59,753 bases of DNA from Salinimicrobium sp. Lineage in GTDB: Archaea; Thermoplasmatota; Poseidoniia; Poseidoniales; Poseidoniaceae. Every line of letters begins with the position of its first letter. Position 1 is the first letter of the stretch. The DNA lies in assembly GCA_964228865.1 (NCBI GenBank), contig CAXRAI010000045.1, positions 1 to 59,753 on the forward strand, in the 5' to 3' direction. Positions 27,094-43,330 of this stretch are shown here, in pieces. Both the position numbers and the translations under genes were made by a program. The notes below the pieces were generated by a model. It was not told the origin of the DNA, made no database searches, and saw nothing but the letters and a program-made list of their open reading frames with translations.

Positions 27094-27115
27094 GGATGTG
27101 AGGAATGACCACCCG

Positions 27116-27123
27116 TATTTAAA
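27116..27123 (-). promoter_or_regulatory. TATA box of tbp
   Basis: TTTAAATA on the minus strand at -30 to -23 from the tbp ATG, consistent with a leaderless transcript. Confidence 0.7.
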
Positions 27124-27182
27124 GAACGGGCCGACGTAGAGACGCACACGGAATCAAAAAAACAAGACTTGGAGCGGGTACC

Positions 27183-27854
<672 letters not shown>

Positions 27855-29663
27855 TCAGCCGATGCCGAAGACCGACGAGGCGCGTTCAAGCAACACGGCC
27901 GTGATGAAGGAAGCAATGCCCGCCACCCACAACAACTGGATGGCTTGGCCCAGGGCACTGGTCAGGCCACCACCCCGCAAGCGCGTGGCGATGAGGGATA
28001 CGGCAGTCACTTGCCCAAGGATCAGGATGGACACGATGATCTTGAACATGCGAATGTTCGTTTCAACCGAAGACGAATCTTCCATGATCGGTAACGCGAT
28101 TCCAGCACCGAAATCGGCGAGCGCAGAAACGTCGGCGTTGTCGGTGATGCCCGAAGCCACGCCAGCGACCGCTTCACCCAACTGAAGCACGATGGCGATG
28201 GTGACGTTGAGCGACGTCACGCTGGCGATCAGCAAACCGATGGCTACGCCCCACATGGTGTTGGCCGAAAGGGAGCGGCGGTTGCGCAACGACAGCAGGT
28301 TACCGACCGACCGAGACACCATTTCCGCGGTTTGAGCCGGTTGGCCGGAGGATTGCGACCCTTCGATGTAGATGCGCGTGTACCTGGAAATGACGGCAGA
28401 GTTGGTGTCGGCGTTGAAGTAATCCCAAGCGCGGTCGGAATTGATGCGCGTGGAAAGCCGCTTCTCGAGGCGATCGATGGAGGAATCCAGCAGACCAAAA
28501 TCGATGCCTCGAAGGGCTTTGATGGTCGCCGACGGTTCCGATGAACGGGCTTGAGCCGTGCCGCCCAGCGCGCGGATGAAATCAGGATAGGTCTCGTCCC
28601 TGCGCAACACTTGGCGCTCTTCGCGCATGATGAGCGAGGAAGGGATCAGCATCGGCGTCAGGGGAATGGCGAGCAAAAGCAAACCGTACTTGTCCCAACC
28701 CTCACCGATGGCGCTCCAGTAGATGACGACCACGATGCTCGTCAAGAACAGCAAACCGAGGGTCACCGCCCCCGATGCAAGCAGCGCTCGGCGCGCGTTG
28801 ATGCGGAAGGGCGTCTCCAGCTCGTCGCGTGCGAAGGTGGCGTCGTCGGGAATCGTGGCCCTGAAGGCGAACACGGCACCGATGTTGACCAAGATGAACA
28901 ACAGAGACGCCAAGATCAGGAAGCGAAGCCGGCTGGCCACTTCAATCGGCGTATCGCTGGCGGAGCCGACCTCGAAGAGCACGAGGTGGATGCCGGCAAT
29001 GACCAGGCCGAACAAACCCGCCGTGACCATGGAGACGTAGATTTCCTGCATGGTGTCCACGCTCTCGAGGCGCGTGTCGTAGAGGGTGGTGTACTGCTCA
29101 GCCACCGTCTCCTGCTCGGAGCGCATGAACTCGTCAATGGGTTGGCCTGCCTCGATGGAGAAGGCCATCCGGTCAAGGAAGTCCGTCCACAGCGGAGAAG
29201 GCGATTGTTGCGCCACGATGCGGGCCGCCTCTGGCAGGGCGGTGTGCCACTTGTCCACCAACGTCTCGATACGCTTGACTTCGCTGGCCAGTTCACCGTA
29301 GTCGCGCATCTGTTTCAGGATGTCAAACATCGATTGCGCGCCAACTTCACCCAGCGAGAGGATGCCCATGCGCGTGATGAACATGTGCATCTCTTTCTCA
29401 ATGCGGTTCGCAGCACGCTGGACCTCGAGCAGCGGATACACGGCCGCGGAAACCGCGAGAATGAGAGGCAGCGTGATCAGCAAGGTGATGCCGGCCAATC
29501 CTGAGAAGAGCGCGCCGTCGGTGAAGCCCCCCGTCGAGAAAATAAGCACAATGGCGCTGATCAGTCCGGTGAGGGCGGCACCGCCGACGAAGAAGACCAG
29601 GTAGCGGGGAAACGGCATTTCGAGCCGGCGGAGGGCGATGTGCCAAATCGGCATGCGCTCCAT
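27855..29663 (-). CDS. arlJ: Archaellum assembly membrane platform protein ArlJ (FlaJ)
   Basis: Polytopic, T2SS-F-like domains (FL.R.AFSI..G, D..YPDFIR.LG). Last gene of the archaellum operon, after arlI. Confidence 0.9.
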   Translation of the reverse strand: MERMPIWHIALRRLEMPFPRYLVFFVGGAALTGLISAIVLIFSTGGFTDGALFSGLAGITLLITLPLILAVSAAVYPLLEVQRAANRIEKEMHMFITRMGILSLGEVGAQSMFDILKQMRDYGELASEVKRIETLVDKWHTALPEAARIVAQQSPSPLWTDFLDRMAFSIEAGQPIDEFMRSEQETVAEQYTTLYDTRLESVDTMQEIYVSMVTAGLFGLVIAGIHLVLFEVGSASDTPIEVASRLRFLILASLLFILVNIGAVFAFRATIPDDATFARDELETPFRINARRALLASGAVTLGLLFLTSIVVVIYWSAIGEGWDKYGLLLLAIPLTPMLIPSSLIMREERQVLRRDETYPDFIRALGGTAQARSSEPSATIKALRGIDFGLLDSSIDRLEKRLSTRINSDRAWDYFNADTNSAVISRYTRIYIEGSQSSGQPAQTAEMVSRSVGNLLSLRNRRSLSANTMWGVAIGLLIASVTSLNVTIAIVLQLGEAVAGVASGITDNADVSALADFGAGIALPIMEDSSSVETNIRMFKIIVSILILGQVTAVSLIATRLRGGGLTSALGQAIQLLWVAGIASFITAVLLERASSVFGIG

Positions 29664-29676
29664 CGTGATGCCCCCT

Positions 29677-31395
29677 TCAACGGTCGTTCACGCTGACCCA
29701 CGTGTTGACCGCCGATCGGAACGCATCCCAACCGCTCTGATAGTAGACGTTCAACAAGCCAAAGACGTCGTCGTAATGCGTCAAGTCCCGGTCCGCCATG
29801 TCTTGGATGGCCTGACGACGGCGCTCCAGCTCGTCGTAGATGTCACGCTTGTTTGAGAATCCGGCCATGGCGGCGATCTTGTTCTCAAGCAAGTGCGATT
29901 GGAACATACCGCGGAAGTAGTGCTTGTCCTTGACGGGGTCCCACTCGAACATGCCACGCGTCAGCACACCGTCGCTGTGCTTGTTGTAGCCGATGACCTC
30001 GTCCACACCCGTGATGCGGCGGGCGATGCCGCCACCGGGCGCTTCGACCACTTCTTGGAAGAGCGCGAAGTTGAGGTTGTCGAAGAAACGAATGGGGACG
30101 TTGATCGGGTCACCGGTAAAACGCTGAATCATCTTGACGATGGACGATGCGTGGAAGGTCGCGATGACGGGGTGACCCGTTTGCATGGCCTGGAAGGCGG
30201 TGGCGCCTTCCACACCACGGATCTCACCGATGATGATGTAGCGAGGCCGGCTTCGCAGGGCGGCTTTGAGCAGGTCGAACATCTCAACACGGCTGTCCTC
30301 GTTCTTCGAATCGCGGGTCACGAGGCGCTGCCAGATCTTGTGGCTGACCTTGACTTCAGGCGTGTCTTCAGCTGAGTAGATCTTCACGTTGTGGTCGATG
30401 AAGGGAAGGATGGCGTTCAGCGTCGTCGTCTTTCCGGACGCGGTCTCACCGGACACCAGCACGGACATGCCGTATTCGAGGCAAATCCAGACGTACGCCG
30501 CCACTTGCGCGCTCATTGTGCCCCACTTGATGAGCTGGACGATGGAAATCGTCTCCTCTGCGAACTTGCGGATGGTGAACGACGGGCCAAGCATGGACAC
30601 GTCGTCAGAGAAAATGATGTTGATACGGGAGCCGTCGAGCAGGGCTCCGTCGATGATCGGCTTGTTGTCGGACACCGGACGGCCGATGCGCTCGGACATG
30701 GCCCTCAGGTAGCGAGCAAGCACCTCGCGCTCACGGAAGCGGATGTTCGAGGTGACCATCCCGAACACCTTGTGGTCCATGTGGATGTACTTCAGACCCA
30801 CCGAGTGAATGTCTTCCAGCATCTCGTCGGAAAGCAGCGGCTCCAAGGGCCCGTTGCGGATGAGGTCGCGGATGATGATGTAGCGGAGACGCTGGCGCTG
30901 TGCTTCGTCAACGGCGAGGCGCTTGTCCTCAAGGCCGAGGATGTCCCACATGCGGCCCTGACGGCGGGGGCCAACAGGTAGGTCCTGACGGAGCACCGTG
31001 TAGCGGTCGATCATCTGGGAAAGGATGCCTTCGAATTCATCGTCGGTGGTGAAGTTCGGCGCAGCAGGGGCTTCCTGCAGGAGGACTTCCACGAGTTCAC
31101 GTCGGATGTTTTCCTCTTCTTCAGTAAGTTGTGGCTCAAGGCCAATCCAGAGGACTTGACCCGCGTCCTCCTCGTCTTCCGCAGGCTCGTAGATGTGGAC
31201 GAAAATGGGTTCCTTGGTGATGTAGATGAGGTTCAGCGGACGCTGCTTCTTGGCGTCACGGTCCAACGGACCGTAGTAGGTGGGCCTCGAGCCGTACCGG
31301 GCTTCGAAGTCGCGCACCCATTCCGCAACGTGCGGATGAGCCGCCATGACGCTCGCGAGATCGCCACGGGCGAACTTCAGCTCTTCGTCGGCCAT
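29677..31395 (-). CDS. arlI: Archaellum motor/assembly ATPase ArlI (FlaI)
   Basis: Walker A GETASGKTT, AEDTPE, RSRP.YIIIGEIRG and FQAMQTGH...TFH. Confidence 0.95.
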   Translation of the reverse strand: MADEELKFARGDLASVMAAHPHVAEWVRDFEARYGSRPTYYGPLDRDAKKQRPLNLIYITKEPIFVHIYEPAEDEEDAGQVLWIGLEPQLTEEEENIRRELVEVLLQEAPAAPNFTTDDEFEGILSQMIDRYTVLRQDLPVGPRRQGRMWDILGLEDKRLAVDEAQRQRLRYIIIRDLIRNGPLEPLLSDEMLEDIHSVGLKYIHMDHKVFGMVTSNIRFREREVLARYLRAMSERIGRPVSDNKPIIDGALLDGSRINIIFSDDVSMLGPSFTIRKFAEETISIVQLIKWGTMSAQVAAYVWICLEYGMSVLVSGETASGKTTTLNAILPFIDHNVKIYSAEDTPEVKVSHKIWQRLVTRDSKNEDSRVEMFDLLKAALRSRPRYIIIGEIRGVEGATAFQAMQTGHPVIATFHASSIVKMIQRFTGDPINVPIRFFDNLNFALFQEVVEAPGGGIARRITGVDEVIGYNKHSDGVLTRGMFEWDPVKDKHYFRGMFQSHLLENKIAAMAGFSNKRDIYDELERRRQAIQDMADRDLTHYDDVFGLLNVYYQSGWDAFRSAVNTWVSVNDR

Positions 31396-31408
31396 CGAAA
31401 TCTCCTCC

Positions 31409-32125
31409 TCAGCTCACCGCGGTGATGTCGACGATGAAGCCCATGCTGGGTTCGACACGCCAACCGATGTTGGTCTGCACTGGACCGGCCGCCCGCAGGA
31501 AGCGGGTCACGGTCAGGCTTCGCTTGATGTCCCCACCGATGAGGGCGGTGCTCATGTCGAGCACAAGTTCCGCGCTGCTGCGCAGCATGTGCAGCGCTTT
31601 TCCGTCCGTTTCCTCGGGGTCGACCGTCAGCAGGATCGAGCGACCGTCGGACACGACTTCACGCAAGCGCTGCATCATGGCGACACGCTCGGCATCGTTG
31701 TGCAACTCGGGCATGATCGAACTCGCGGTGTCCAAGACGATGACGTCCGCTTCTTCGATGGCCGGTGAGGTGAACACGTCGTAGAGCGACACGTCGGGGA
31801 CTGGCTCAGCGATGGTTCCGTAGCGCGAGAACACCGTAAGGCGTCCTTCCGTGAGCGGTTCGGTCACGCCGTAACCGATGGATTCCATTTGTTCAATCCA
31901 GCCGCGGGTGGTCAACTCGGTGGTCACCACGAGGATCTTGCAGCCGTTCTCCAGCATGCCGTGAACCAAGCGTTGCGAGACGAGGGACTTCCCTGAACCG
32001 ACCGTGCCCTGGATGAGGTAAAGCGAACGGTTCGGGAGGTGGAGTCCCATGGAATCCGCCAATGAATCGGTTTCCACACCGAAGGGGAAGCCGTCTTCGA
32101 CGGGCTTTGGAGCATGCTCAGACAA
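31409..32125 (-). CDS. arlH: Archaellum RecA/KaiC-like ATPase ArlH (FlaH)
   Basis: G..GSGKSLVSQ, TELTT..WIEQM.S.GY and C-terminal WRVEP..G..VDITAV. TTG start with a GAGGTGA SD. Confidence 0.9.
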   Translation of the reverse strand: MSEHAPKPVEDGFPFGVETDSLADSMGLHLPNRSLYLIQGTVGSGKSLVSQRLVHGMLENGCKILVVTTELTTRGWIEQMESIGYGVTEPLTEGRLTVFSRYGTIAEPVPDVSLYDVFTSPAIEEADVIVLDTASSIMPELHNDAERVAMMQRLREVVSDGRSILLTVDPEETDGKALHMLRSSAELVLDMSTALIGGDIKRSLTVTRFLRAAGPVQTNIGWRVEPSMGFIVDITAVS

Positions 32126-32600
32126 CGAGCCTCACCTCCGCATCCAAGGTGTCCGTACCCCGAACGTTGCTGACGAACTCGGAGGAGACCACCACGGTCA
32201 GCGTCACTTCGGTGTTGTTGGTGTAGGTCAGCGTGTTGTCAACGACCTGGACCTGAAGGAGTTCACCGGCGGACCAATCGCCACCGTTCATGACCGTCGT
32301 GGTCAAGTTACCGCTTTGTTGAACGCCGTCCACCAGGACCACGAGGGTGCTGTCGTCGAGGACCGAGGTGCCTGAGTTCATCAGGTAAAATTGGATTTGA
32401 CCGGTGAGGCTGTAGCGCACATGACCGGGATCTCCGGCCAAACTGACGTCGGTTTCTGCGTCGATGGCTTGTGCCCGGCGTTCCATTTCCATGGACCGCG
32501 CCACGTCGCCCCATTCTGCAATGAGGAAGGTGCTGACGCTGCCGGCCACCAGCAAGGCGGTAACGAGCATGATGAACGAGGTTGCACCACCGTCTGCCAT
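32118..32600 (-). CDS. arlG: Archaellum stator protein ArlG (FlaG)
   Basis: N-terminal hydrophobic segment, T.V...GDP, Y..NSG, VLVDG and W..GE motifs. Located between arlF and arlH. Confidence 0.8.
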   Translation of the reverse strand: MADGGATSFIMLVTALLVAGSVSTFLIAEWGDVARSMEMERRAQAIDAETDVSLAGDPGHVRYSLTGQIQFYLMNSGTSVLDDSTLVVLVDGVQQSGNLTTTVMNGGDWSAGELLQVQVVDNTLTYTNNTEVTLTVVVSSEFVSNVRGTDTLDAEVRLVV

Positions 32601-32609
32601 GTGCTCACC

Positions 32610-33248
32610 TCACACCAGTTCCGTCACGACGGTCGTTTCGCCGACCGAAAGCGCAAGGCGCTCCCAGGCCGTCGTCGAGCCTTCAAGCCACATGATCCAC
32701 ATCGTTTCACCCGAGTACAGGTTGTTGCCGATGGGTTCAGCCACCATGAGATCGGGCACGCGCTCGACGTTCTCGCCGTCGAGGAAGGCCCAGACCTCGT
32801 CCAAGGGGACCACGGTGCTGCCGAGGTTGGTCACGTTCGCGTGCACCACGCTGCCGAGGACGGCTGAGACGGCTCCGGTGGAGCCGCCAACGGAGCTGAT
32901 GGTCAGGGTTGGGGATGAGGTGAAATCCCTGTTCCCTTCCATGGCTACGCTGACGGCCACCAGGCCACCGCTTGCGTCCACTTCGGTCACGCTTCCGACC
33001 ACGGTCGTGCCGTCGAGGATCTGATCCCCGGCCACGTAACCGCTGCCGTTTGTGGTGATGCTGATGTCGACCAAACCGTTGGTGTCCACGTTGGCGTCCA
33101 CGAAGGACATCTGTGGAGGTGGTTCCCCCGGTTCCGTGACATCAAGGTGCGTGGCAAGTCGAGCGTCGAGGGTACCGACGAAGATGACGAAGACGGCCAG
33201 CATGGCCATCCCCACCACCAATCCACCGATGCCCGTCGACGCGCTCAT
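32610..33248 (-). CDS. arlF: Archaellum stator protein ArlF (FlaF)-like, with an internal insertion
   Basis: N-terminal TM and archaellin-like core NVTNLGS...FLDG...LYSGET. Operon position fits arlF. Confidence 0.65.
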   Translation of the reverse strand: MSASTGIGGLVVGMAMLAVFVIFVGTLDARLATHLDVTEPGEPPPQMSFVDANVDTNGLVDISITTNGSGYVAGDQILDGTTVVGSVTEVDASGGLVAVSVAMEGNRDFTSSPTLTISSVGGSTGAVSAVLGSVVHANVTNLGSTVVPLDEVWAFLDGENVERVPDLMVAEPIGNNLYSGETMWIMWLEGSTTAWERLALSVGETTVVTELV

Positions 33249-33252
33249 GCCT

Positions 33253-34113
33253 TCACGACCTCATGCTGTTGCTTGCTGCTGCAGCGCGCTGCGCTTGGTT
33301 GCGCCATGCGCTGACCAAGGCGGAGAAGGACAGCAGGGCCCGGTTCGGGAGGTGATCCGCCAAAGCGGCCTCGGTTTCCCCGGGTTCAGCCAACTGCACG
33401 ATGGCCATCACTTGACGGCCTTCGTCCGGACTGAGCATGCCTGAGTCCATCGCCTTCTGCGTGAAGCTGGACGCCGCCATGCCCGTCATGTGATCGAGCA
33501 GGAGGGCGGCGACCGTCGGTGCCCCAATGCGGTCACCCGACGCGCCTCCGAGGCCGTCAGGTGCACGCAAGAAGGGGTTTGCAGCCAGCGCTTGCGCTTC
33601 GTAGAGCTCAACGAGGGGTGCCTCGTCGTCCGGCTTGAGGCGTGAGGCCCCGTCGCCGGCTGGGATGCGCTCCCCGGACGCCGTGATGATCACGTCGCCG
33701 CTCATGGCTTCCATGTCCGTTCCTTCCTCGCCTTCATCGCTGAAGGTCGCGGTTGGACCGGACACCATCGCTTCGTCCACGCGGGTCTCGACCATGCGGA
33801 GCACGTCTTCGACCATGTCGAGTCGGCTGCTGATGAGCCGCTCGAGGCCGGACGTGTCCACGGTCGCGTTGACCTGTGCTGGTGCCGAGGGCGCCAGCGC
33901 TTGGGTCGTGGATGGAACGCTGCCAATGCTGTTGAGTTTGGCGCGTGCTGGGCCAGGACGGATCGTCCAAGCGTCCTCCTCGGACAACTCCCCCTCCTCA
34001 GGGTGGGGGACCTGCTCGATCGGGACGTTCGAGAGGACCTTCAGGTGACCTTCGGTCGCCTGAGCGTCATCGTCCGTCGCTGTCCGTGCACCGCCACCAA
34101 ATGGCCATGCCAT
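33253..34113 (-). CDS. Divergent ArlC/D/E (FlaC/D/E)-like cytoplasmic archaellum accessory protein
   Basis: Coiled-coil segment, then LVELYE......NPF, resembling the ArlC LYE..V...NPF motif. Sits between the archaellins and arlF. Confidence 0.55.
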   Translation of the reverse strand: MAWPFGGGARTATDDDAQATEGHLKVLSNVPIEQVPHPEEGELSEEDAWTIRPGPARAKLNSIGSVPSTTQALAPSAPAQVNATVDTSGLERLISSRLDMVEDVLRMVETRVDEAMVSGPTATFSDEGEEGTDMEAMSGDVIITASGERIPAGDGASRLKPDDEAPLVELYEAQALAANPFLRAPDGLGGASGDRIGAPTVAALLLDHMTGMAASSFTQKAMDSGMLSPDEGRQVMAIVQLAEPGETEAALADHLPNRALLSFSALVSAWRNQAQRAAAASNSMRS

Positions 34114-34115
34114 GG

Positions 34116-34162
34116 TGATGCCTCCTCTGCACCCCGTTGCCGGGGGGCATCAGGGCGCAGAG
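34116..34162 (-). other. Intergenic RNA stem-loop(s) downstream of the archaellin genes
   Basis: mRNA-sense CUCUGCGCCCUGAUGCCCCCCGGCAACGGGGUGCAGAGGAGGCAUCA. Contains a CCCCG-GCAA-CGGGG GNRA hairpin, plus UGAUGCC/GGCAUCA and CUCUGC/GCAGAG inverted repeats. Confidence 0.6.
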
Positions 34163-34166
34163 CGGA

Positions 34167-34778
34167 TCAGACCACCACAGCGCCTTCGGTGGCGTCGTTG
34201 ACCTTGAGGATGTCATAGGTCGTTCCGCCGCCGACGACGTGAATGTACAGCGTGGCCTTGACGTTGTTCGCGAACAGCGCGTCCGGGCTGCAGTCGTTGG
34301 TGTTGGGCGCCGCGACGTTGTCGTTGGCGTCGAGGGTGAAGCGGTAGGCGACACCTGACTCGAGGTCGTTGACGTCCGTCGCGGTGTCGTCACCGAGGTC
34401 AACCACGTTGCTGTCACCGAAATCGCCGGCGATGTACTGGAAGTTGCCCGCACCGTCGTCGCAGGAGACCTGCCACAAAACGTCGGTGTCGGCCGTGTCG
34501 TCACTGCCCGCAGCGAGGCGGAAGTAGACTTCGTACGATTCAGCACCGTCGTTGACGAAGACGTTGAGGACCTGCACCTTGCCGGACATTTCGTCCGTGG
34601 TGTCCTCACCGGTCGACTGGGCGTTCTGCTGGAGCTTCTCCGCGGTCTGAATGATGACCGCAGCGGCCACGGCAGCGACGAGGATCAGGGCGATGAAAAC
34701 GATCATCGCACCGATGCCGATCGCGGCCATGGTGTCCTGTTCTTGCGTGTTGTTCTTGTTCATGTTCGTGTTCTTCAT
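34167..34778 (-). CDS. arlB: Archaellin (second copy)
   Basis: Class III signal peptide followed by AIGIGAMIVFIALILVAAVAAAVIIQTA, and LAAGS. GAGGTGA SD upstream. Confidence 0.93.
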   Translation of the reverse strand: MKNTNMNKNNTQEQDTMAAIGIGAMIVFIALILVAAVAAAVIIQTAEKLQQNAQSTGEDTTDEMSGKVQVLNVFVNDGAESYEVYFRLAAGSDDTADTDVLWQVSCDDGAGNFQYIAGDFGDSNVVDLGDDTATDVNDLESGVAYRFTLDANDNVAAPNTNDCSPDALFANNVKATLYIHVVGGGTTYDILKVNDATEGAVVV

Positions 34779-34787
34779 GATCTCACC

Positions 34788-35366
34788 TCAAACGACGACG
34801 TCCCCAACGCTTGGGGAGCTTCCGTACTGGAGTTCTTCGTAGGTCTGACCGCCGCCCACAACGCTCAGCACAAGGATGTGAGCCGTGTTGGCCGCTGGCG
34901 CGCAGTCGGAGATGTCCATCTGGACGACGTAGGTCACACCCGGGTCCAAGGAGGTCAGAGCGACCTCCACACCGGTGATGTCGCCGTCGCCCTCGTGGGT
35001 TTCGGCATCGCCGAAGTTCCCCGCGGCGAAGGCCGTGGCGCCCGCACCGTCGTCACAGACGACGGTGTAGGACACGTCCGAAGGCACCACAGGGTTGCTT
35101 CCGGCAGCCAATTCGAAGGTGCTGAAGAGCGTCTCCGTTCCTGCTGTGTCGTCCCAGATGACGGTCGAGAGCAGGACCACCTTCGTGGACATCTGTTCTT
35201 GCGTGTCGTCACCCGCAGACTGGGCGTTCTGTTGCAGCTTCTCAGCGGTCTGAATGATGACCGCCGCCGCCACCGCCGCCACCAGGATGAGGGCGATGAA
35301 GACAATCATCGCACCAATCCCGATCGCTGCGGCGTTATCGCGCGTTTCGTTTCGTTCGTTGTTCAT
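34788..35366 (-). CDS. arlB: Archaellin (first copy)
   Basis: Same archaellin N-terminal helix and LAAGS..V. GAGGTGA SD upstream. Confidence 0.93.
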   Translation of the reverse strand: MNNERNETRDNAAAIGIGAMIVFIALILVAAVAAAVIIQTAEKLQQNAQSAGDDTQEQMSTKVVLLSTVIWDDTAGTETLFSTFELAAGSNPVVPSDVSYTVVCDDGAGATAFAAGNFGDAETHEGDGDITGVEVALTSLDPGVTYVVQMDISDCAPAANTAHILVLSVVGGGQTYEELQYGSSPSVGDVVV

Positions 35367-35373
35367 TTCTTGT

Positions 35374-36498
35374 TCACCTCATGTTGTGTGTTTTTCCCCC
35401 CCGGCGTCCGGGGGTGGAGTTGGAGGACGGACCGTCACGCGGTCCGCCGATGTCAATGCGGAGTGGGATACGGATGTGCGCCACCTCGTCAGGTTCCAAG
35501 CGCGGCACCATGGGAAGGGCGTCGGACGTGTAGCCCGGTGGGAACCACGGATCGATGAGGACATCGACCAAGGGCTCCATGGAACGGTTTTGCGCACGCA
35601 CGGTGCACACGATGTCGCCAGAACGCATCTCATAGCCGACGGCGAGGGCCAATTTCCTGGCCAGCGGAATTTCATCGGCGCCATAGCGCCGGTCTGCGGT
35701 GATCTCGAAGCGAACAGGAAGGTTGCCGCCGGGAGCGATGCTGGGCACGTCGATGAGTTCTGGGTCGGAGGTCCAGCCCTCGGGAACGGGAGGATGCATG
35801 CGCATCATCGGGAGGGTGATGGGGCCGTCGTTGATGATCCGGACAATCATGACGCCCATGTCGCCGCCAGCGGGCCACCGCGTGTCGATGCCGAGCCAGA
35901 AGTGGCGGAACAAGAAGGGGTTCAAGGTGGACGTATCGCCGCCGATCAGGTCGTCGACCAAGCCTTCGACCTCAGCGGCCGCCGTACCGACTTCACCGGC
36001 TTCCGCAGCGCTCGTGGCGTCGCGAAGACGGAGCAGAATGTGCTCCACTTCACCGTGGGAGACGTGGGACTTTTCCTTGAGCAGGCGGTGAAGCAGGGCC
36101 ATCGAGCGGCGCAGGTGGAGCACGGATTCCTTCAGCTCCTCCAAAGCCTTCTCAGCGCGGAGCACCGTTTTCAGGGCCTTCCGGAGGCGGTGGTGGTTCA
36201 GGTGAGCGCGGGCCTCGGCCACATCGAGTTCGGTCCTGGCCAGCGAGTTGACCTGCTGGTTCAGCACCGTGTTCACGGCCAAATTGAGGTCGCGACGGGC
36301 CGTGGCGACGGCGGGGCCGTCGTCCTGCTCTTCGAACTCAACGTCGTCGAGGTCTTCGTCATCGGGTCCAAGGTCTTCGACGTCGTCGTCCATGTGCTCG
36401 ACCTCGTCGTGCTCCATCGGCACGTCGTCAACGACCGCCTCCTTGTCTTCGACCTCGAAGGGGACCTCCTCGGTTTCGATGCCGTCCAATTCAGACAT
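35374..36498 (-). CDS. Hypothetical cytoplasmic protein: acidic N-tail, helical region, two NEW3/Ig-like modules
   Basis: No signal peptide. Two similar beta modules (V.I.N.G......P.PEGW......I.PG....V.F.I and V...N......PPGY......LEP.E...I...L). Start overlaps the upstream stop, and its own stop lies inside the arlB SD. Confidence 0.7.
   Translation of the reverse strand: MSELDGIETEEVPFEVEDKEAVVDDVPMEHDEVEHMDDDVEDLGPDDEDLDDVEFEEQDDGPAVATARRDLNLAVNTVLNQQVNSLARTELDVAEARAHLNHHRLRKALKTVLRAEKALEELKESVLHLRRSMALLHRLLKEKSHVSHGEVEHILLRLRDATSAAEAGEVGTAAAEVEGLVDDLIGGDTSTLNPFLFRHFWLGIDTRWPAGGDMGVMIVRIINDGPITLPMMRMHPPVPEGWTSDPELIDVPSIAPGGNLPVRFEITADRRYGADEIPLARKLALAVGYEMRSGDIVCTVRAQNRSMEPLVDVLIDPWFPPGYTSDALPMVPRLEPDEVAHIRIPLRIDIGGPRDGPSSNSTPGRRGGKTHNMR
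35398..35448 (-). other. Two GC-rich hairpins immediately upstream of the first archaellin gene
   Basis: Inverted repeats CCCCCGG/CCGGGGG (35398-35414) and CGGACCG/CGGTCCG (35428-35446). An A/C-rich stretch and the SD follow on the mRNA. Confidence 0.5.
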
Positions 36499-39400
36499 CC
36501 TCAACCACCCCCTGTTCGTCCCAGTCCACGGTTTCGCTCAACTCGCGTGCGGCCTGACTCGCTTCATCGAGAAGGTCAGCCAAACCGAGTCCGTCTTCAG
36601 CAAGGTCACCGAGGAGTCGCGCCGGATCGGCCAAGTCACGCTCGATGCGCGCCGAAGAGGTCTCGATGTCGGTGAGCCGCCCGTAGATGCGGCCGTACGT
36701 CCGATTGCTGCGGCGCAGCAGGTAGATGACGCCGAAGGAGACCACGATGAGGTAAGCCAACAGGCTGCCGCCGTTGAGGTTGTCACCTGGCACTTGTGCG
36801 GGCACACCCATGACGATGAGCACGAACCCGAAGATGGGAAGCGCAAGGATGGTGCTCAATGCGCGTTGCGTGTCTCGCAGCGCCTCGAAGTGATCCGCAT
36901 ACACGGTCGAAAGGCCCTTGCGTTGACGCTGGTAATCCTCGTGGAGCACGCGGAATTCTTCGGACGCCCGCCAACTCATGCGCCACGTCCACAGCGCGGC
37001 GACCGTAAGCACGACCGGACCCCACCAAACAATGGAGAGCAGGTGGAAGGAGAAGCCAAGACCAAGCAAGCCTGCGTAGACGGCAGCAAGGCGGAAGTTG
37101 TCGTTCTGGTTGCGCAAGGCCACAAAGAGGGCCGCCAGCAGGAGACCTGCGGCCGCTCCAGCAAGGACCACAATGGGACGCGGGGACCACGCCACCACTT
37201 CTTCTTCGATGACGAGGCGGTTGTTGTCAACCTCGTCGCCGAAGCTGGCGGAGACCGGTGAAGACCAGTCCGCCGTGCAGCGCAATTGCGAGGAGCTGAG
37301 CCACCAGTCCATGCTGTTGGGTTGGATGCCGAACTGCACGTTCACGCTCTCACCGGGGAACAACAACGGGATGGCCTCGGGGCTGTTCACGACTTCAGCA
37401 CCATCGCAGATCAGTTCGGGGAGAACCTCGACCGCCAACGATGTGCCGTAGTTCACGATGTCAAGGCTGAGGTTGGTGGCGACACCCTCCATGAGGCGGT
37501 CTCCTGTGATGGTCCACTCTTTGGCCACGCCCTCGAGGTCGAAGGCGGGATCTGCCTTGGTGTCCAACCGGTAACGGTAGGTGGCCTCCGTGTACTCGGT
37601 GTACCCCGCGTTCTCGTTGGGGTGGTAAAGGCGGAAGGTCAAGTCCCAGCCGTCGCCAGGAAGGAGGTTTGGTCGATCGGGTGCATCGATGGCCATCGTG
37701 GGAGCACCCGTCGTTTCCCATGCTTGGCGCAGAGGGAGCGTGATGAGGCCGTCACCGGCGCATCCGGTCGCGGTAAGGTCGAGGGCATGCGTTTGGTCGG
37801 CACCGCTCCCGGTCACGAGGTCGAAGCCCCAAATCAGGTCTGAAGCGGAGATGTCTGGGGCGATGATGCCCGGTTGAATCAAGCGTTCTGCAGAGCACAA
37901 TTCCAATTCGTAAACGGCCGCCGTGGAGGCACTGACTGGGATGTGGGTCCACATGAACGGGCGATTTTCCACACCGTCATCGAGGCCTGGCATGAAGACG
38001 TCGGGTTCGTTTTGGAACATCCGAGAAACCGCCAGGTTGGTTTCGAGCACGGCAGAGCCACTGACGCTGGTGTCCACCGGGGTAAGGGTCACCCGGAGTT
38101 CACCCTGAAGGGAGAGCAAGGGCTCCAGTTCAACAAGTTCCACCACGACGTCGAGGGTCGTGTCCACGCCACGACGAAGGCTGACCACCTGAGACGCGGC
38201 GCTGGACAAGGCCCAATCCTCGCTGAGTTGATCGGTGCCCGGGCGGTACAAGGCCACGTCCACGTTGACGTCGATGTCTGCGTTGCCAACGTTCCTCACC
38301 GAGGCGCTGATGCCTTGCGACAAGCCGCGGTGGAAGAGCAAAGTGCTCGGCCAGTCAGGGCTGCTGATGTCGAAGAGAGGCGCGATCACGACGTCCACGC
38401 TGCCGAGGGTCCGCAGCACTCCCGTTTCGGTGTCGTTGACGTAGATGAGGACCTCGTGGACGTCACCACGGTCGAGCTGAGCCGTGCCGCCAAGCGCGGG
38501 CACGGTGATGCTCAAGGTACCGACTTGACTCTCGTCAATGGGCAACTGCACCGTGTAGAAATCGAGGCTTGCTCCCCAACCGTCATCGATTTGTGGGACC
38601 AAGGTCAGGTCCTCGAGGTAGTTCCCATCGTTGGTGAGCGTGAACGGCAAATTCACCGTCGTGCCGGGGATGGCGTTGTGTTGGACCCCGCTGCTTCCAG
38701 CATCGTCGTCAAGCGAGGCATCGAAGACCAAAGCCACGTCGTCCATCTCGCTGACGTTGGCTTGGATGATGGCCTCAAGCACGGGACCTCCGATCACGGT
38801 CACGATCACCGTCGCCGAGTAATTTACGTCCGCCGCAGCGTCTTCGCTCGGGTTCAATTGCACTTTCACGCCGTCACTGAAACCTGCACCGATCAGCACC
38901 GAAGTGCTGCTTGTCAGGGTGAAATCCACTTCGTCGTCCGGATCAACAATCTCCACCGTGAATTCGGCCGGAGTGTTTCCTGTGTTCATCATCGTCAGGC
39001 TGGTCAGAGGAGATTCGAAGATGCTCAAGTTGACCAAGCGGTAGGGCGGGTCCAGCGTGGCATCCACAAAGGCCTCGACGGTGATGGGAATCTGGGCTTG
39101 ACCGATGACCTCGCCCGTGTCCGTGTTGGATATCTCAAGGTCCACGTGGGTGATTGACCCTGCTTTGGCCAATGGATCTGAGGTAACGGTGAGGTCGAAG
39201 GTCGTTTCATGGGCCGTGCTGATCACGTTGGGGTAAGCGGCCACCTGAGACGGCAGACTGCTCACGGTGGTCATCAAGCCACCAGCGGTGCCAAGCGTGG
39301 CTGACCACTCGACGGGGAGGGTGTTCAGGAGGCTGATGGTGTAATTGGAGACGTCGTTGCCCACGTTGCGCAGTCCAATCGGGAAGGTGGTCGCAACCCC

Positions 39401-41431
39401 AACCTGCGCGGTTCGGACCCCCTCGTCGATGATTTCACCGTCGTTGATGCCGGGGACGCTGACCGTGACCGTTCGGGTCACTGGAGCCGTGTTGACGCCA
39501 CCGGATGAGTGAACGGTGGAGAGGCTGGGGGTGACCGTCACATCGGCTTCAAGCAAGCCCGCCAAGGGGAGGGAATCTGCGGGTCCTTGCACCGAAAGAA
39601 CGGCAGGACTGGTCATGCCCAAGGTCATGTTCGTTGCGTTGGGCGGCGATGGCGTGAAGGCCCAACGGGAGGCTTCAGAGAACCCGCCTGCGCCTCCGTG
39701 AGAGGTAAATCGGACGTCCGAAACCGCCACGGTGGCGTTGACCAACTCGTTGACGTTGTTGATGAGGTTGTGACGAACCTCGAGGTCCATGGGCACCAGT
39801 GCGTCGTATCCAATGCCATAACGGGCCGCACGGACGTCGGCTTCGGAGAGTTCCAACGCGTCCAATTCAAGCCCTGGATCGACCACGATAACAGGAGCCA
39901 CGGAGAGTTCGAGTTCGTCGTTCACAGGAACGCCGTTGACCGCTGAAGCACCCACCCAAAGGTCGACCAAATCGCCCTCTTGGTTCCGCTCGGCGGGGTC
40001 AAGGGGGGCGCTGATGTGGGCCGGGGTGACCGTCACATCAAGGCTCACCGTTTCTCCAGGGGCAAGGTATCCGGTCTGCGGAGGGACGGGCAGCTCAACC
40101 GTCCAGCCTTGTGGGGACGGTGAGAAGCCTGCGGTCATCAGGAAATTGGTGTTCACGTTCCCTTGATTGGTCACGTTCACGGTGATGCCGGTGGGCAGGC
40201 CTGGCACCACACTGATGCTGGTGTTGTCGATGTCGACCTCGGAGAGGAAGAGTTCACCGGCCGTGATGCTGACCACCGCCTGAAGCGAATATTGGGGGCT
40301 GGCTCCTTGTGAGGTGAAAGTCACCGTCAACAGTTCGGTTTGCCCGATGGACGCCGTGATCGGAACGTCGACGTTGGCGACAAATTCGAGGTTGCTCCCG
40401 GCTGAGATAGGCCCGGTGTTCAACGGCCATGAGGACGTGTCGGACCAACCGAGGAGGCTGTGCGTGGCCACGTTCCAGTTGTCCAGCTGCTGACCTGTGT
40501 TGTCGAGTTGGAAGGTCAGCAGTTTGCTGGTCCCGGGCTGAAGCGTGCGGTCTTGCGGAGCGTGGAGCGCAGCCGCGTAGTCAGAAAAGACGACGTCGAA
40601 TGCCGCCACTTGAATGACTTCGCTCCACGAACCTGGTCCCGTGAAGGTCACGGTCATGGTGATGTTGTACCCGCCTGCGAGGCTGGTGGCGTCCAAGGAG
40701 ACGAGGAGGAGTTCGGAATTCGCAGGATTGTGCAGCGAGCCGGGTGCAAGAACCGCGATGGTGTTGGACGGGTAGGTGTTTGCAGCCCCGCCGCTCAAGG
40801 GCGTCAACACGACGTCCATGGTGGCGCTCATGTCGGTGACGCCGTCGTTCTTGACGGGCACCGACAGTTCGTACGTGCCCAACGAGAGACGAGCCACAGA
40901 CTGACCTGGGCTCGCTTCGGGGTGGGTCGGGGCGAGGGTGGTGCCGTCGAGGTAGCGTTCAACGTCCAACGCAAGGACCCGTTCATCGTTCATGGTGTTC
41001 CCGTCCAGCTGGGACGAAACGCGGGCGTAGAGGGTCTGGTCCTCTCCCGTTGCGGCCGTCCAAGACATGAGGAACACCGAGGGCGCACCCCCGGGTGCAA
41101 GGGAACCGGTGGACATTTGGTCGACTTGAACCTCAAACGCGGTTGGAGATCCCTTGTGGAACAGGGACAGGGTGGCGCTGCCTGCGAGCGTCCCCACGTT
41201 GGCGACTTCGATTCGAACCGTGTGGGCGCCGGGAGCAGCCACGACGGAGATGATGCCCCCTTCGTTGAGTTGAATGGAACCGTGGTTGTCCAGCGTCAGG
41301 CTGCTGACGCTGAAGTCAGGGCCCGCCCGACCTGAGGTGGCTTCTGCGGCCGGGGTGGCCATGGGCAGGACGAGGGTGAGGAGGAGCAAGGCGACCAAGC
41401 CAATGGACGAAGCACGGGAAGCCATGGTCAT
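36491..41431 (-). CDS. Giant exported multi-Ig (CARDB/NEW3-like) protein with C-terminal ~5-TM domain
   Basis: Signal peptide and many repeats of V.N.GN..D......GW.......L.PG....V.V..P. C-terminal multi-TM region with cytoplasmic helices. Confidence 0.8.
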   Translation of the reverse strand: MTMASRASSIGLVALLLLTLVLPMATPAAEATSGRAGPDFSVSSLTLDNHGSIQLNEGGIISVVAAPGAHTVRIEVANVGTLAGSATLSLFHKGSPTAFEVQVDQMSTGSLAPGGAPSVFLMSWTAATGEDQTLYARVSSQLDGNTMNDERVLALDVERYLDGTTLAPTHPEASPGQSVARLSLGTYELSVPVKNDGVTDMSATMDVVLTPLSGGAANTYPSNTIAVLAPGSLHNPANSELLLVSLDATSLAGGYNITMTVTFTGPGSWSEVIQVAAFDVVFSDYAAALHAPQDRTLQPGTSKLLTFQLDNTGQQLDNWNVATHSLLGWSDTSSWPLNTGPISAGSNLEFVANVDVPITASIGQTELLTVTFTSQGASPQYSLQAVVSITAGELFLSEVDIDNTSISVVPGLPTGITVNVTNQGNVNTNFLMTAGFSPSPQGWTVELPVPPQTGYLAPGETVSLDVTVTPAHISAPLDPAERNQEGDLVDLWVGASAVNGVPVNDELELSVAPVIVVDPGLELDALELSEADVRAARYGIGYDALVPMDLEVRHNLINNVNELVNATVAVSDVRFTSHGGAGGFSEASRWAFTPSPPNATNMTLGMTSPAVLSVQGPADSLPLAGLLEADVTVTPSLSTVHSSGGVNTAPVTRTVTVSVPGINDGEIIDEGVRTAQVGVATTFPIGLRNVGNDVSNYTISLLNTLPVEWSATLGTAGGLMTTVSSLPSQVAAYPNVISTAHETTFDLTVTSDPLAKAGSITHVDLEISNTDTGEVIGQAQIPITVEAFVDATLDPPYRLVNLSIFESPLTSLTMMNTGNTPAEFTVEIVDPDDEVDFTLTSSTSVLIGAGFSDGVKVQLNPSEDAAADVNYSATVIVTVIGGPVLEAIIQANVSEMDDVALVFDASLDDDAGSSGVQHNAIPGTTVNLPFTLTNDGNYLEDLTLVPQIDDGWGASLDFYTVQLPIDESQVGTLSITVPALGGTAQLDRGDVHEVLIYVNDTETGVLRTLGSVDVVIAPLFDISSPDWPSTLLFHRGLSQGISASVRNVGNADIDVNVDVALYRPGTDQLSEDWALSSAASQVVSLRRGVDTTLDVVVELVELEPLLSLQGELRVTLTPVDTSVSGSAVLETNLAVSRMFQNEPDVFMPGLDDGVENRPFMWTHIPVSASTAAVYELELCSAERLIQPGIIAPDISASDLIWGFDLVTGSGADQTHALDLTATGCAGDGLITLPLRQAWETTGAPTMAIDAPDRPNLLPGDGWDLTFRLYHPNENAGYTEYTEATYRYRLDTKADPAFDLEGVAKEWTITGDRLMEGVATNLSLDIVNYGTSLAVEVLPELICDGAEVVNSPEAIPLLFPGESVNVQFGIQPNSMDWWLSSSQLRCTADWSSPVSASFGDEVDNNRLVIEEEVVAWSPRPIVVLAGAAAGLLLAALFVALRNQNDNFRLAAVYAGLLGLGFSFHLLSIVWWGPVVLTVAALWTWRMSWRASEEFRVLHEDYQRQRKGLSTVYADHFEALRDTQRALSTILALPIFGFVLIVMGVPAQVPGDNLNGGSLLAYLIVVSFGVIYLLRRSNRTYGRIYGRLTDIETSSARIERDLADPARLLGDLAEDGLGLADLLDEASQAARELSETVDWDEQGVVEDV

Positions 41432-41847
41432 GCGCTCGCCCTCCTGAACGCGTGGACGGCGACGGTCTTGCCCTGACGCTTCATTTGCTCGACCAGTTGT
41501 TGGAGCAGTCGATCGTGTTCGGCGTCACTGATGCCCAAGCGACGCCGCTCCTCCCAGAGAAGGAGTTGCTCGGTGCGGGACAGCACGGCGTCCTTGAGGT
41601 AGAGCTCAAGGGTGCGGCGGTACGCATCTCGGTCGGAGATGGCGTACACGATGGTATCGCCTGGGAGGCGGTCAGCGTGGTGTTGGATGACGTTGCCAAG
41701 GTTGAGGGCTTCGTCGTAGGAAAGGTGACGGCGATCCAGGTCGTTCTGGATGGACGAAGCGATTTCCTGAAGCGCGTACCGGGTCGGAGCACGCTGAATC
41801 CGTTTCAGATAGCGGCGGCAGCGACGCGACATACGCACTGCTGCCAT
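41428..41847 (-). CDS. Small helical hypothetical protein (ENT/TerB-like C-terminal motif)
   Basis: ATG 41847 with TTTCAAG 30 nt upstream. ATGA overlap with the next gene. C-terminal AY...L....D..LS..E..LL...R..LGIS..EH..L. Confidence 0.7.
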   Translation of the reverse strand: MAAVRMSRRCRRYLKRIQRAPTRYALQEIASSIQNDLDRRHLSYDEALNLGNVIQHHADRLPGDTIVYAISDRDAYRRTLELYLKDAVLSRTEQLLLWEERRRLGISDAEHDRLLQQLVEQMKRQGKTVAVHAFRRASA

Positions 41848-42012
41848 AGTTCCAACTTTCCCTGCCGGTTCTTGAAAGAATCGCCAATGGCACCTTTCGC
41901 TACCCGAAGTGACTTTCATGTCATTCAACACGCATAAACAGTATGCTGTGGGCGCCGAGTCTGCTTTGAAGACGACCAACAGTTGATACAGGCCCCGCTC
42001 AAGCGTGTTTTC

Positions 42013-42498
42013 ATGAGCGAGGCCCCCACCTTCGAAGCCGGACAACGTGCGCCGACGTTCCAGGCCAACGACGCAGCAGGAAACACGCATGACCTCAGTG
42101 CAACACTCGCCGAGGGTAAACACGTGATCCTGTACTTCTACCCCCGTGACAGCACGCCCGGATGCACCACGCAAGCCTGCGATTTCCGTGACAACATGGC
42201 CCGCTTGAACACAGAATCCTACGTCGTTTGGGGCGTCTCAAAGGACAGTGCTGCATCGCACGACAAGTTTTCCACCAAGCAGGAACTCAATTTCCCGCTC
42301 CTCCTCGACGAGGACGGAAGCCTGCACGAGACCTTTGGCACATGGCGCATGAAGATGAACTACGGAAAGGAGTACATGGGTTGTTCCCGCTCCACCTTTG
42401 TCATCGCGCCAGACGGGACCTTCGCCTGGGCGCGATACAACGTCCGTGCCAAGGGACACGTGGACATGCTGATGCGTGAACTTGGACTTGGAGCGTGA
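42013..42498 (+). CDS. bcp: Peroxiredoxin Bcp/PrxQ
   Basis: LYFYPRDSTPGCTTQACDFRD and RSTFVI motifs. Start at ATG 42013. Confidence 0.93.
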   Translation: MSEAPTFEAGQRAPTFQANDAAGNTHDLSATLAEGKHVILYFYPRDSTPGCTTQACDFRDNMARLNTESYVVWGVSKDSAASHDKFSTKQELNFPLLLDEDGSLHETFGTWRMKMNYGKEYMGCSRSTFVIAPDGTFAWARYNVRAKGHVDMLMRELGLGA

Positions 42499-43330
42499 AG
42501 GTCTGAGCGAGGAAGCACGTCGAACCGTGTCCGCGTTCCTCGAACGCTGTGTCGCCTACGCGTCCTCGTCCATTGAGCGCAAAACACAACGCGGTGAAGA
42601 CACGAGCGGTTGGGAAGCCTACAGGGACCACACCACGTTTGCCCTTGACGAAGTCCGTACAGGCCGCCTCGACGCTTGGTTGAGCGGACAGGGCGATGAC
42701 CAACCTGCACGAACGTCTCAGCGCTTGGTGAACGGACACAACACGTTTCGGATGGATGACCTCGATCACCCCTCTCGAGCACGCCTGCTGACGGCGACGC
42801 TCTCGCCTCGGCCATTGGTGTTGGTCGCCACCACCGATCAGCACGGACGCCACAACCTCGCACCCATGACCTCCCTCAGCGTGGTCTCCAACAGCCCACC
42901 CTTGGTCGTGATGTCCTTGTCAAGCGACCGGGAGGGCAGGGCGCGCGACACCCTCCTCAACCTCCGAGAATGCCCCAACGCGACCCTGTACGTGTTGCTG
43001 AGCGGCCCCGATGACGCAGAGTTGGTCGCCAACACCGCACCTTCGGTCCCCAGAGGCACCTCAGAATGGAACGCCGTTCCTCACGTCAACGACAGCGGGG
43101 GTCGACCCTTTCTCGACCGGGCGGCAGCAGCACTGCAGGTCCGCATGGTGGACGAACTTCCGTTGCCCGAAGCCGTGGCACGGTTGGTCGTGTTGCGGGT
43201 GGAGGAAGTCCTGCTTCCAGAAGCGACCTCCGACGCAACAGCGCTCGACGTGCTGTGTCAGCACGGCCTCGACCGCTTGATGGCAAGCCCCACCGGCTGG
43301 TCGCAGGTGGTCGATCATCGCTCGTCCTGA
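42476..43330 (+). CDS. Flavin reductase-like (FMN-binding split barrel) protein with N-terminal extension
   Basis: PRP..LV.T.....G..NLAP.S......S..PP and RDTL.N motifs. Start uncertain. Confidence 0.75.
   Translation: MNLDLEREGLSEEARRTVSAFLERCVAYASSSIERKTQRGEDTSGWEAYRDHTTFALDEVRTGRLDAWLSGQGDDQPARTSQRLVNGHNTFRMDDLDHPSRARLLTATLSPRPLVLVATTDQHGRHNLAPMTSLSVVSNSPPLVVMSLSSDREGRARDTLLNLRECPNATLYVLLSGPDDAELVANTAPSVPRGTSEWNAVPHVNDSGGRPFLDRAAAALQVRMVDELPLPEAVARLVVLRVEEVLLPEATSDATALDVLCQHGLDRLMASPTGWSQVVDHRSS

Follow-up and report, generated by a model that had tools for sequence, protein, structure and literature searches.

The window analysed here is a 59,753-nucleotide contig (CAXRAI010000045.1, assembly GCA_964228865.1) from a 1.85-Mb metagenome-assembled genome (G000; completeness 85%) of the Poseidoniales, also known as Marine Group II (MGII), and its minus strand carries, from 41847 to 27855, eleven consecutive co-oriented open reading frames (ORFs) of an archaellum (arl) cluster. 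Family scans left five of the eleven without a family name, and three of these stand at the head of the cluster: P139 (41428-41847, minus strand), the first gene, encoding a basic, soluble, all-helical protein of 139 aa; a gene for a 1646-aa envelope protein with immunoglobulin (Ig) repeats and C-terminal transmembrane (TM) segments, hereafter the giant (36491-41431, minus strand); and P374 (35374-36498, minus strand), of 374 aa from the ATG at 36498, or 376 aa if translation begins at a TTG two codons upstream. Judged from their junctions and gene order, the three are the real, translationally coupled head of the Poseidoniales archaellum operon. Profile searches and synteny further indicate that the giant/P374 pair is old and widespread across several Thermoplasmatota classes without being universal, and that the two proteins probably belong to the motility apparatus, as a component not recognised before. 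The other two unnamed genes, X286 and Y212, lie further downstream.

The coupling of the head genes can be read directly from the DNA. P139 and the giant share 4 nt in an ATGA, an 8-nt overlap (ATGTCTGA) joins the giant to P374, and the TGA stop of P374 (35374-35376) sits within the GAGGTGA Shine-Dalgarno (SD) sequence, 7 nt ahead of the ATG of the archaellin gene arlB1. These three junctions had been described in a first-pass annotation of the DNA and are exact in the sequence; the same annotation had recognised eleven co-oriented genes ending at arlJ, which is borne out by the ORF list and the family scans. The placement of the P374 stop inside the SD sequence is true here but peculiar to the genus, the distance between P374 and arlB being 55-107 nt in other Poseidoniaceae genera and 55-234 nt across other genera.

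Profiling of 41 Poseidoniales genomes from the window's own genus, family and order found true ArlI, the motor ATPase, in 27 (26 above the cut-off and one partial match at 544 bits). P374, P139 (counting strong matches) and the C-terminal 267 residues of the giant were each found in 24 of the 41, every time in an ArlI-positive genome, and the C-terminal part of the giant was always single-copy and confined to arl loci. Of the three genes, the 14 ArlI-negative genomes yielded just a 30-aa P139 fragment at a contig start in G010 (82% complete). The three ArlI-positive genomes lacking P374 (G007, G019 and G035) are all explained by contig ends beside the cluster: the contig stops 1.7-2 kb upstream of arlI in G019 and G035, and in G007 the cluster is split, one contig stopping immediately past arlB1 and another carrying P139 and giant residues 1-1467 up to its end. 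Other contig ends carry the G035 giant and the N-terminal part of the G264 giant. When the eleven window proteins were searched with tblastn, the order P139-giant-P374-arlB-X-Y-G-H-I-J proved identical in 11 of 12 spanning loci from three families, the contig of the twelfth (L031) ending inside arlI; locus L046 of G311 shows the same order without a P139 match. Both linkage tests named in the first-pass annotation came out in favour: across the 41 genomes the three genes occur only with ArlI, and they are syntenic with arl wherever a relative's contig reaches. Identity to the window proteins across genera is 45-72% for P139, 30-60% for P374 and 24-39% for the giant, compared with 44-68% for ArlH and 58-87% for ArlI.

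The pair extends beyond the order. In a phylum sample of 301 Thermoplasmatota genomes, a P374 hidden Markov model (HMM) built from Poseidoniales only gave weak matches in two other families (G059, E 3.5e-9; G047, E 6.2e-7), both within arl clusters. The gene order in G047 is giant (1489 aa), P374-like (330 aa), arlB, ArlC-D/E fusion, ArlF, ArlG, H, I and J, and that in G059 is giant (1282 aa), P374-like (568 aa), arlB, ArlC-D/E fusion and two large ArlF-domain proteins, with arlI on a separate contig. By hhalign the Poseidoniales P374 is homologous to its counterparts in other classes (99.15%, E 3.9e-19, over 257 columns), and a combined profile found near-full-length P374-like matches (E<1e-36) in 31 non-Poseidoniales genomes. 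Of these 31, 22 carry the P374-like gene on the contig and strand of arlI, 3-5.5 kb upstream of it. Upon inspecting seven non-Poseidoniales loci, we observed an archaellin gene directly after the P374-like gene in six; in five, the gene before it encodes a protein longer than 1200 aa that has a hydrophobic segment at its N-terminus and several TM segments at its C-terminus. For example, the loci of families f19, f36 and f45 read giant, P374-like, arlB, ArlCDE, F, G, H and I, the f45 giant being cut by a contig end, and the f46 locus has a 520-aa polytopic protein where the giant would be. Taken with the profiling and the synteny within Poseidoniales, the presence of the pair before arlB in other classes makes a functional tie of the three genes to the archaellum likely. 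Independently of the pair, the two large ArlF-domain proteins of G059 (L043, 934-5085; 642 and 715 aa) open with an ArlF-like domain (NF052590, E 1e-18 and 1e-13), and one of them also has LapB-type repeats; they resemble 'giant ArlF' variants.

Several results weigh against a role of the pair as a core structural part of the archaellum, foremost among them its separation from arl genes in G043 and the many archaellated lineages that lack it. The P374-like gene and arlI lie on different contigs in 7 of the 31 non-Poseidoniales genomes (G043 and six more), and the position of arlI was unavailable in a further two. In G043 (family f7; L051, 2390-8976) the pair is followed not by arl genes but by two coiled-coil genes, zinc-ribbon genes and a STAND NTPase/TPR gene, with arlI on another contig, a context that may hint at a membrane-skeleton role for the giant/P374-like pair. 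All 35 genomes of family f16 have ArlI and none of the 35 has a P374-like match at E<=1e-6, and in family f10 the corresponding counts are 7 of 9 and 0 of 9; likewise, the Oxyplasma operon, in the available text of its description, consists of arlB-C-D-F-G-H-I-J only (PMC12448462). The existence of archaellated lineages without the pair means that the pair is not required for an archaellum as such. The TM domains of the Poseidoniales giants and of the other giants gave an hhalign value of just 5.6%, from shallow alignments of 12 and 6 rows, and the resemblance detected among giants across lineages is one of architecture and of Ig-level similarity (BLAST E 6e-4 over 133 aa). Comparison of P374 with the ArlC-D/E fusions (hhalign 15.6%) and with X286 (1.6%) was non-significant in both cases. 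The co-occurrence in Poseidoniales is weak as independent evidence, as the counts are of genomes rather than independent events and the three genes are contiguous with arl, so that a single deletion removes all of them. Furthermore, complex formation, location at the motor and an anchoring role are all inferred from gene structure, conservation, synteny, phyletic pattern and domain anatomy.

The same facts bear on whether the head genes have a motility role at all. They could be conserved neighbours, for instance a general surface protein and its membrane-skeleton partner that happen to reside beside arl, and both the G043 pair, away from arlI and next to coiled-coil proteins, and the archaellated lineages without a pair would fit such an arrangement. 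Conversely, searches of 14 non-archaellated Poseidoniales did not recover the pair, so it is not a general envelope protein of the order, and without selection it is hard to see how the pair could have kept one position and strand ahead of arlB in six or more families from other classes; we consider mere neighbourhood the least likely of the explanations weighed here. As a separate observation, genome G052 (L052 11446-14740) of f16, a family without the giant/P374 pair, and many other f16 and f27 genomes carry two tandem ArlI genes, both above the cut-off and within arl clusters (for example G079:C13:3282-6532 and G253:C3:123353-126588).

The domain anatomy of the giant suggests a membrane-anchored envelope protein. 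Hydropathy indicates a signal-like hydrophobic segment at the N-terminus and four to five TM segments within residues 1417-1575, the hydrophobic stretches being 1417-1441, ~1448-1482 (probably a hairpin), 1522-1549 and 1552-1575, followed by an acidic tail (1576-1646). The ectodomain between them comprises ~1380 residues and gives Ig-type Pfam matches to HYDIN/VesB Ig, CARDB and NEW3. By the positive-inside rule the predicted topology is N-out, C-in, which would place in the cytosol both the loop at ~1483-1521, with the motif W-x-S-E-E-F..I-H-E-D-Y-Q-R, and the tail, with the motif Y-G..Y-G-R-L-T-D..R-I-E-R-D-L-G-D-P. Both motifs are kept in 12 orthologues, and conservation in the predicted cytosolic loop and at the beginning of the tail is among the highest in the protein (~0.4 compared with a typical 0.25-0.3). 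The giant thus resembles the S-layer-like proteins known from other arl loci in having several Ig-like folds, a secreted-type N-terminus and a position in the arl locus. Two other identities were considered for the giant and rejected. It is not a general MGII S-layer protein, as it was not found in the 14 non-archaellated relatives. Prepilin-type peptidases are expected to carry a GxGD motif, and the TM domain of the giant has no GxGD-type motif, its conserved acidic residues lying in the cytosolic loop.

An ectodomain of this kind could also belong to an adhesin or surface-sensing module that is co-expressed with the archaellum, in which the giant would bind particles or algal surfaces and its TM domain and partners would report or stabilise attachment; the archaellum itself may then serve MGII attachment. 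Ig repeats of the CARDB/NEW3/HYDIN type are typical of adhesins, and the giant evolves fast, as is evident from its identity range across genera beside that of ArlI. The first-pass annotation had noted the lack of chemotaxis genes and of a prepilin peptidase in the window, and this was upheld genome-wide for CheW, CheF and Peptidase_A24, none of which was found in G000 at its 85% completeness; the missing CheW and CheF would suit attachment, and Rinke et al. argue in the available text that adhesion, not motility, is the function of the MGII operon (PMC6461757). On the other hand, it is not obvious why an adhesin would need a polytopic anchor and a conserved partner of its own in the cytosol, the Pfam scan revealed no lectin or other recognisable binding domain in the giant, and a fixed place directly before arlB across classes is better suited to a structural role in a machine. 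We therefore regard an adhesive or sensory function as somewhat unlikely.

P374, the constant partner of the giant, is acidic and by hydropathy has neither a signal peptide nor a TM segment. In its AF2 model (pLDDT 75.8) an acidic, disordered N-terminal stretch is followed by a bundle of five helices (61-185) and a pair of Ig-like beta-sandwiches (200-348), and the alignment reveals a conserved linker, LNPFLFRHFW, and a genus-specific C-terminal tail. The Pfam match to NEW3 (PF10633) is below the gathering threshold (13.5 bits compared with 24.4; E 0.086). Searched against 1.84 billion sequences, the Poseidoniales P374 HMM recovered 80 representatives, of which ~9 are full length, and reached proteins bearing NEW3, CARDB or DUF11 domains, the NEW3 ones at E 5e-8 to 5e-4; four distant relatives are collinear with P374, with the same layout of a helical part and two sandwiches. 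The NEW3-like region of PDB chain 9fyn aligns to the family at E 8e-6, and structure searches returned no solved homologue other than this NEW3-like domain. Thus the C-terminal domains of P374 have a beta-sandwich fold and HMM reach in common with NEW3, CARDB and DUF11 (PF10633, PF07705 and PF01345); those domains are usually extracytoplasmic, whereas the P374 versions, lacking a signal peptide or TM segment and scoring below the Pfam threshold, would be cytosolic. A search with the non-Poseidoniales P374 alignment returned six proteins only, giving no view of the taxonomic range. Recoding was considered for in-match TGA, TAG and TAA codons in P374 of several genomes and was rejected, since upon translation the matches overrun the true stop into intergenic DNA.

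Foldseek matched P374 to generic tandem Ig-like proteins (E ~1e-4 to 5e-3, with low TM-scores), namely transglutaminase C-terminal domains, PapD-type chaperones and ASH/MSP proteins, and helical-bundle matches in VIA (Z<=8.4) were inside the noise. The presence of the two-domain PapD-type chaperones CupB2, FimC and Caf1M in this list (E 4e-4 to 5e-3) raises the prospect that the soluble head proteins are cytoplasmic assembly or regulatory factors, P374 acting as a chaperone of archaellins or ArlCDE-like ring proteins, P139 as a regulator, and the giant being incidental. In accord with this, P374-like genes immediately precede arlB, a short NPF[LI] motif is common to P374, X286 and the ArlC-D/E fusions, and P139 is basic (26 K+R compared with 18 D+E). 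The chaperone matches, however, are generic Ig pairs with TM-scores of 0.12-0.17 of the query. In type IV filament assembly archaellins are membrane-inserted before they are assembled, so a soluble chaperone is unexpected. Moreover, the giant and P374 genes overlap by 8 nt and stay paired even where arl genes are missing (G043), and the Foldseek and VIA searches found no DNA-binding fold for P139. Assembly or regulatory factors are accordingly a distinctly unlikely explanation of the head genes.

P139 stands apart from the pair. It was found in 45 of the 301 Thermoplasmatota genomes, every one of them Poseidoniales, and on this distribution it is a lineage-specific addition within the order, outside the old giant/P374 module; the first-pass view of the three genes as a single module needs correcting in this respect. 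Within the order P139 is about as conserved as ArlH across genera and families. Its AF2 model (pLDDT 92.4) comprises six helices. Scans against Pfam and NCBIfam gave no match, and Foldseek gave none at E<=0.001; VIA matches reached Z<=8.0 and included no DNA-binding fold. ESM-Atlas neighbours with TerB or ENT domains (scores 0.82-0.84) are a lead only, and the VIA matches to EMSY ENT domains (Z 7.0-7.1 over residues 38-138) are inside the noise range of helical proteins. Two further observations concern P139. A motif like residues 73-120 of P139 recurs in a 350-aa protein that has zinc ribbons at both termini (G000:C15:62739-63791; L036 1739-2791, minus strand); the gene of this protein adjoins an actin/MreB-like gene, and equivalent weak matches are present in nearly all Poseidoniales searched. 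In the MGIIb genome G040 (L031, 8979-12231), ~3.3 kb separates P139 from the giant, compared with the overlap in other genomes.

The explanation that we favour, with modest confidence and as a general class, is an archaellum-dedicated envelope scaffold or anchor at the base of the archaellum. The giant would build a membrane-anchored scaffold or collar around the archaellum base, as a counterpart of the S-layer-like Ig proteins in the arl loci of Methanococcales and Thermococcales, and this scaffold would give the filament passage through the envelope, give the ArlF/G stator something to brace on, or both. The cytosolic loop and tail of the giant would dock P374 and, in Poseidoniales, also P139, and so join the scaffold to the motor's cytoplasmic components. 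Three features suggest that the pair acts together with the archaellum and that in Poseidoniales the three proteins may form one membrane-spanning assembly: the translational coupling, the conserved cytosolic segments of a surface protein that elsewhere evolves fast, and a dedicated soluble partner encoded before arlB across classes. The trans-membrane scaffold put forward in the first-pass annotation fits the anatomy insofar as an ectodomain is joined to a TM bundle whose cytosolic segments are conserved, with two translationally coupled soluble partners; it needs amending in that P139 lies outside the old module. A more specific version, which we offer tentatively, is a two-protein archaellum component, widespread in Thermoplasmatota, that acts as an S-layer-independent anchor, with the giant as collar or brace around the filament base, P374 as a clamp to the motor from inside and P139 as a third subunit gained in Poseidoniales.

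Upstream of P139 lies a promoter-like block resembling a B recognition element (BRE) and TATA box (GGCGATTCTTTCAAGAACCGGCAGG; 41861-41885, minus strand), ~21 nt before the ATG and containing the TTTCAAG of 41871-41877. The block is near-identical upstream of P139 orthologues in other genera, at about -40 to -18 from the ATG, and would imply a leaderless or near-leaderless transcript. A GGAGG/GAGGTG-like motif precedes the start codon by 5-12 nt in all ten internal genes, and P139 alone among the eleven has no SD-like motif before its start, which fits a leaderless first gene. The first-pass annotation had remarked that no TATA box is visible before arlB. This is true but uninformative, as a scan for AT-rich 8-mers (>=7 A/T) in the 150 nt upstream of each of the eleven genes found none, P139 included, so that the absence of a TATA-grade site does not set arlB apart. 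In addition, between the peroxiredoxin-like gene (41983-42498, plus strand) and P139, at ~41900-41940 on the minus strand, there is a TTTATGC box followed by an inverted repeat whose position is conserved and whose sequence varies by genus (GTGAAT-N8-ATTCAC in L023, GCATTA-N4-TAATGC in L027); the arrangement may represent either another promoter together with its operator or a hairpin in the RNA.

Just upstream of arlB1 is a conserved element, CTCCACCC..GGGGG (35396-35419, minus strand), composed of a GC hairpin and then an A-rich run. The TCCACCC of this element is unchanged in all seven aligned sequences, which represent five genera, and its 5-bp stem is largely preserved. In other Poseidoniaceae genera the spacer between P374 and arlB reads TCCACCC, short GC stem, A-rich run and then SD, and in the window's genus the P374 ORF is without the ancestral stop and runs through the element; the loss of that stop accounts for both the genus-specific C-terminal tail of P374 and the stop-in-SD arrangement. 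A second GC hairpin, CCCCGGCAACGGGG, lies between arlB2 and X286 (34114-34166, minus strand), and the two hairpins flanking arlB1 and arlB2 may bound a stable archaellin mRNA segment or act in processing. A consensus scan placed a terminator-like hairpin with a T-rich tail 18 nt past the arlJ stop (27822-27837, minus strand); the sigma-70 and terminator scan as a whole is at chance level, with 16 terminator-like sites compared with 12 expected. No Rfam family was matched within 27000-43000. Among contigs from four runs, three of them true RNA runs, over 33200-42100, some from RNA libraries lie on the giant (38830-39037 and 40684-41260 in X5, 37470-37573 in X15) and on P374 (36315-36464 in X5, 35518-36084 in X15), DNA carry-over being possible for all of them. 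In the three true RNA runs no contig reaches across the P374/arlB1 junction, and the sole contig that does (33653-36595, X1) comes from a run flagged as probably DNA.

The remainder of the cluster, all on the minus strand, is a largely recognisable archaellum set. The archaellin genes arlB1 (34788-35366) and arlB2 (34167-34778) match PF01917 at 74.9 and 75.8 bits, respectively, compared with a cut-off of 29.5. The 160-aa ArlG-like stator protein (32118-32600) matches NF052591 ArlG at E 2.4e-17 and 63 bits compared with a cut-off of 110, and also PF01917 at 35.4 bits. ArlI (29677-31395; NF058587) scores 673.2 bits compared with 550. ArlH (31409-32125; NF052589, E 6.4e-53, 179.8 bits compared with 215) and the platform protein ArlJ (27855-29663; NF004704, E 1.8e-115, 386.7 bits compared with 550) are clear best matches, yet their scores fall under the curated cut-offs.

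X286 (33253-34113) encodes a soluble acidic protein at the position of the ArlC-D/E fusions of other Thermoplasmatota. It has no Pfam match, including none to FlaC_arch or Arch_fla_DE, families that are both matched at the equivalent position in 6 of 6 non-Poseidoniales loci, and its comparison with the ArlC-D/E fusions of other Thermoplasmatota is non-significant (hhalign 0.87%). A LY..NPF motif common to X286 and the ArlC-D/E fusions, and an ESM lead from X286 to Arch_fla_DE at 0.86, suggest that X286 is probably a very divergent ArlCDE counterpart. Y212 (32610-33248) occupies the ArlF position and matched no family; a putative ArlF role is assigned by this position, together with its N-terminal hydrophobic segment. 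With regard to archaellin processing, a search for PF01478 (Peptidase_A24) at E<=0.01 found no match in G000 or in five further Poseidoniales genomes of 91-97% completeness (G023, G113, G211, G246 and G039), and a control search with the same profile matched 12 of 14 reference genomes. In Poseidoniales the class III signal peptidase may have diverged strongly, or another enzyme may have taken its place. The archaellins of this cluster start ...AAIGIGAMIVFIALILVAA.

Parts of this picture are known already. S-layer-like multi-Ig proteins have been reported in the arl loci of Methanococcales (arCOG05057) and Thermococcales (PMC13705601, citing Makarova et al. 2016), so the association of Ig proteins with archaellum loci was already in print. 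According to the available text, the arCOG05057-type protein is a large secreted multi-Ig protein in the arl locus, proposed to prepare the envelope for the filament or to remodel it locally, and in these respects the giant is alike (PMC13705601). As far as those descriptions go, the giant differs in its polytopic ~5-TM end with conserved cytosolic segments, its P374-family partner and its place at the operon head before arlB; the text and supplements of PMC13705601, one supplementary file excepted, contain no partner protein and no mention of Poseidoniales. For MGII itself, Tully (2019) described a 'putative MGII motility operon' with FlaAGHIJ, unannotated syntenic orthologous proteins and conserved flanking genes in MGIIa (PMC6336850). 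This is the same locus, and in the available text the unannotated proteins are left uncharacterised, with neither a coupled unit before arlB nor a link to other Thermoplasmatota. Rinke et al. 2018 (PMC6461757) and Orellana et al. 2019 (PMC6864105) reported flaB/H/I/J and no chemotaxis genes, and adhesion and motility are debated there as functions of the operon. The portions of the MGII literature searched make no mention of a giant membrane protein or its partners. What is known is therefore that multi-Ig S-layer-like proteins stand at some arl loci and that conserved hypothetical proteins lie in the MGII operon; new relative to the literature searched, with the exception of one supplement of PMC13705601, are the predicted polytopic anchor with cytosolic motifs, the constant P374 partner and the position of the pair at the arl-operon head across Thermoplasmatota classes. 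Also among the closest known systems are the accessory parts of the archaellum, namely the ArlF/G stator, which braces on the envelope, and the ArlX/ArlCDE ring around ArlH/I, which like the new genes are encoded in the operon beside arlB; the head genes have no detectable homology to either. Since the cluster already has ArlG-like, ArlF-position and ArlCDE-position genes, the head genes come on top of these rather than in their place.

Marine Group II archaea, all uncultured, rank with the most abundant archaea of the surface ocean, and their motility operon has been used to infer swimming as opposed to particle attachment. About 6.5 kb at the head of that operon had so far been left 'hypothetical', and defined targets for study are now available in P374, in P139 and in the predicted cytosolic segments (loop and tail) of the giant. 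Were the giant an adhesin, the archaellum would be genetically tied to attachment, with a bearing on particle colonisation by MGII. How ArlF/G act without an S-layer in Thermoplasmatales was stated as an open question in 2025, in the available text of PMC12448462, and the giant/P374 pair is a concrete candidate for stator anchoring where there is no regular S-layer. If the tentative two-protein anchor is true, it would answer how ArlF/G resists torque in lineages without a paracrystalline S-layer.

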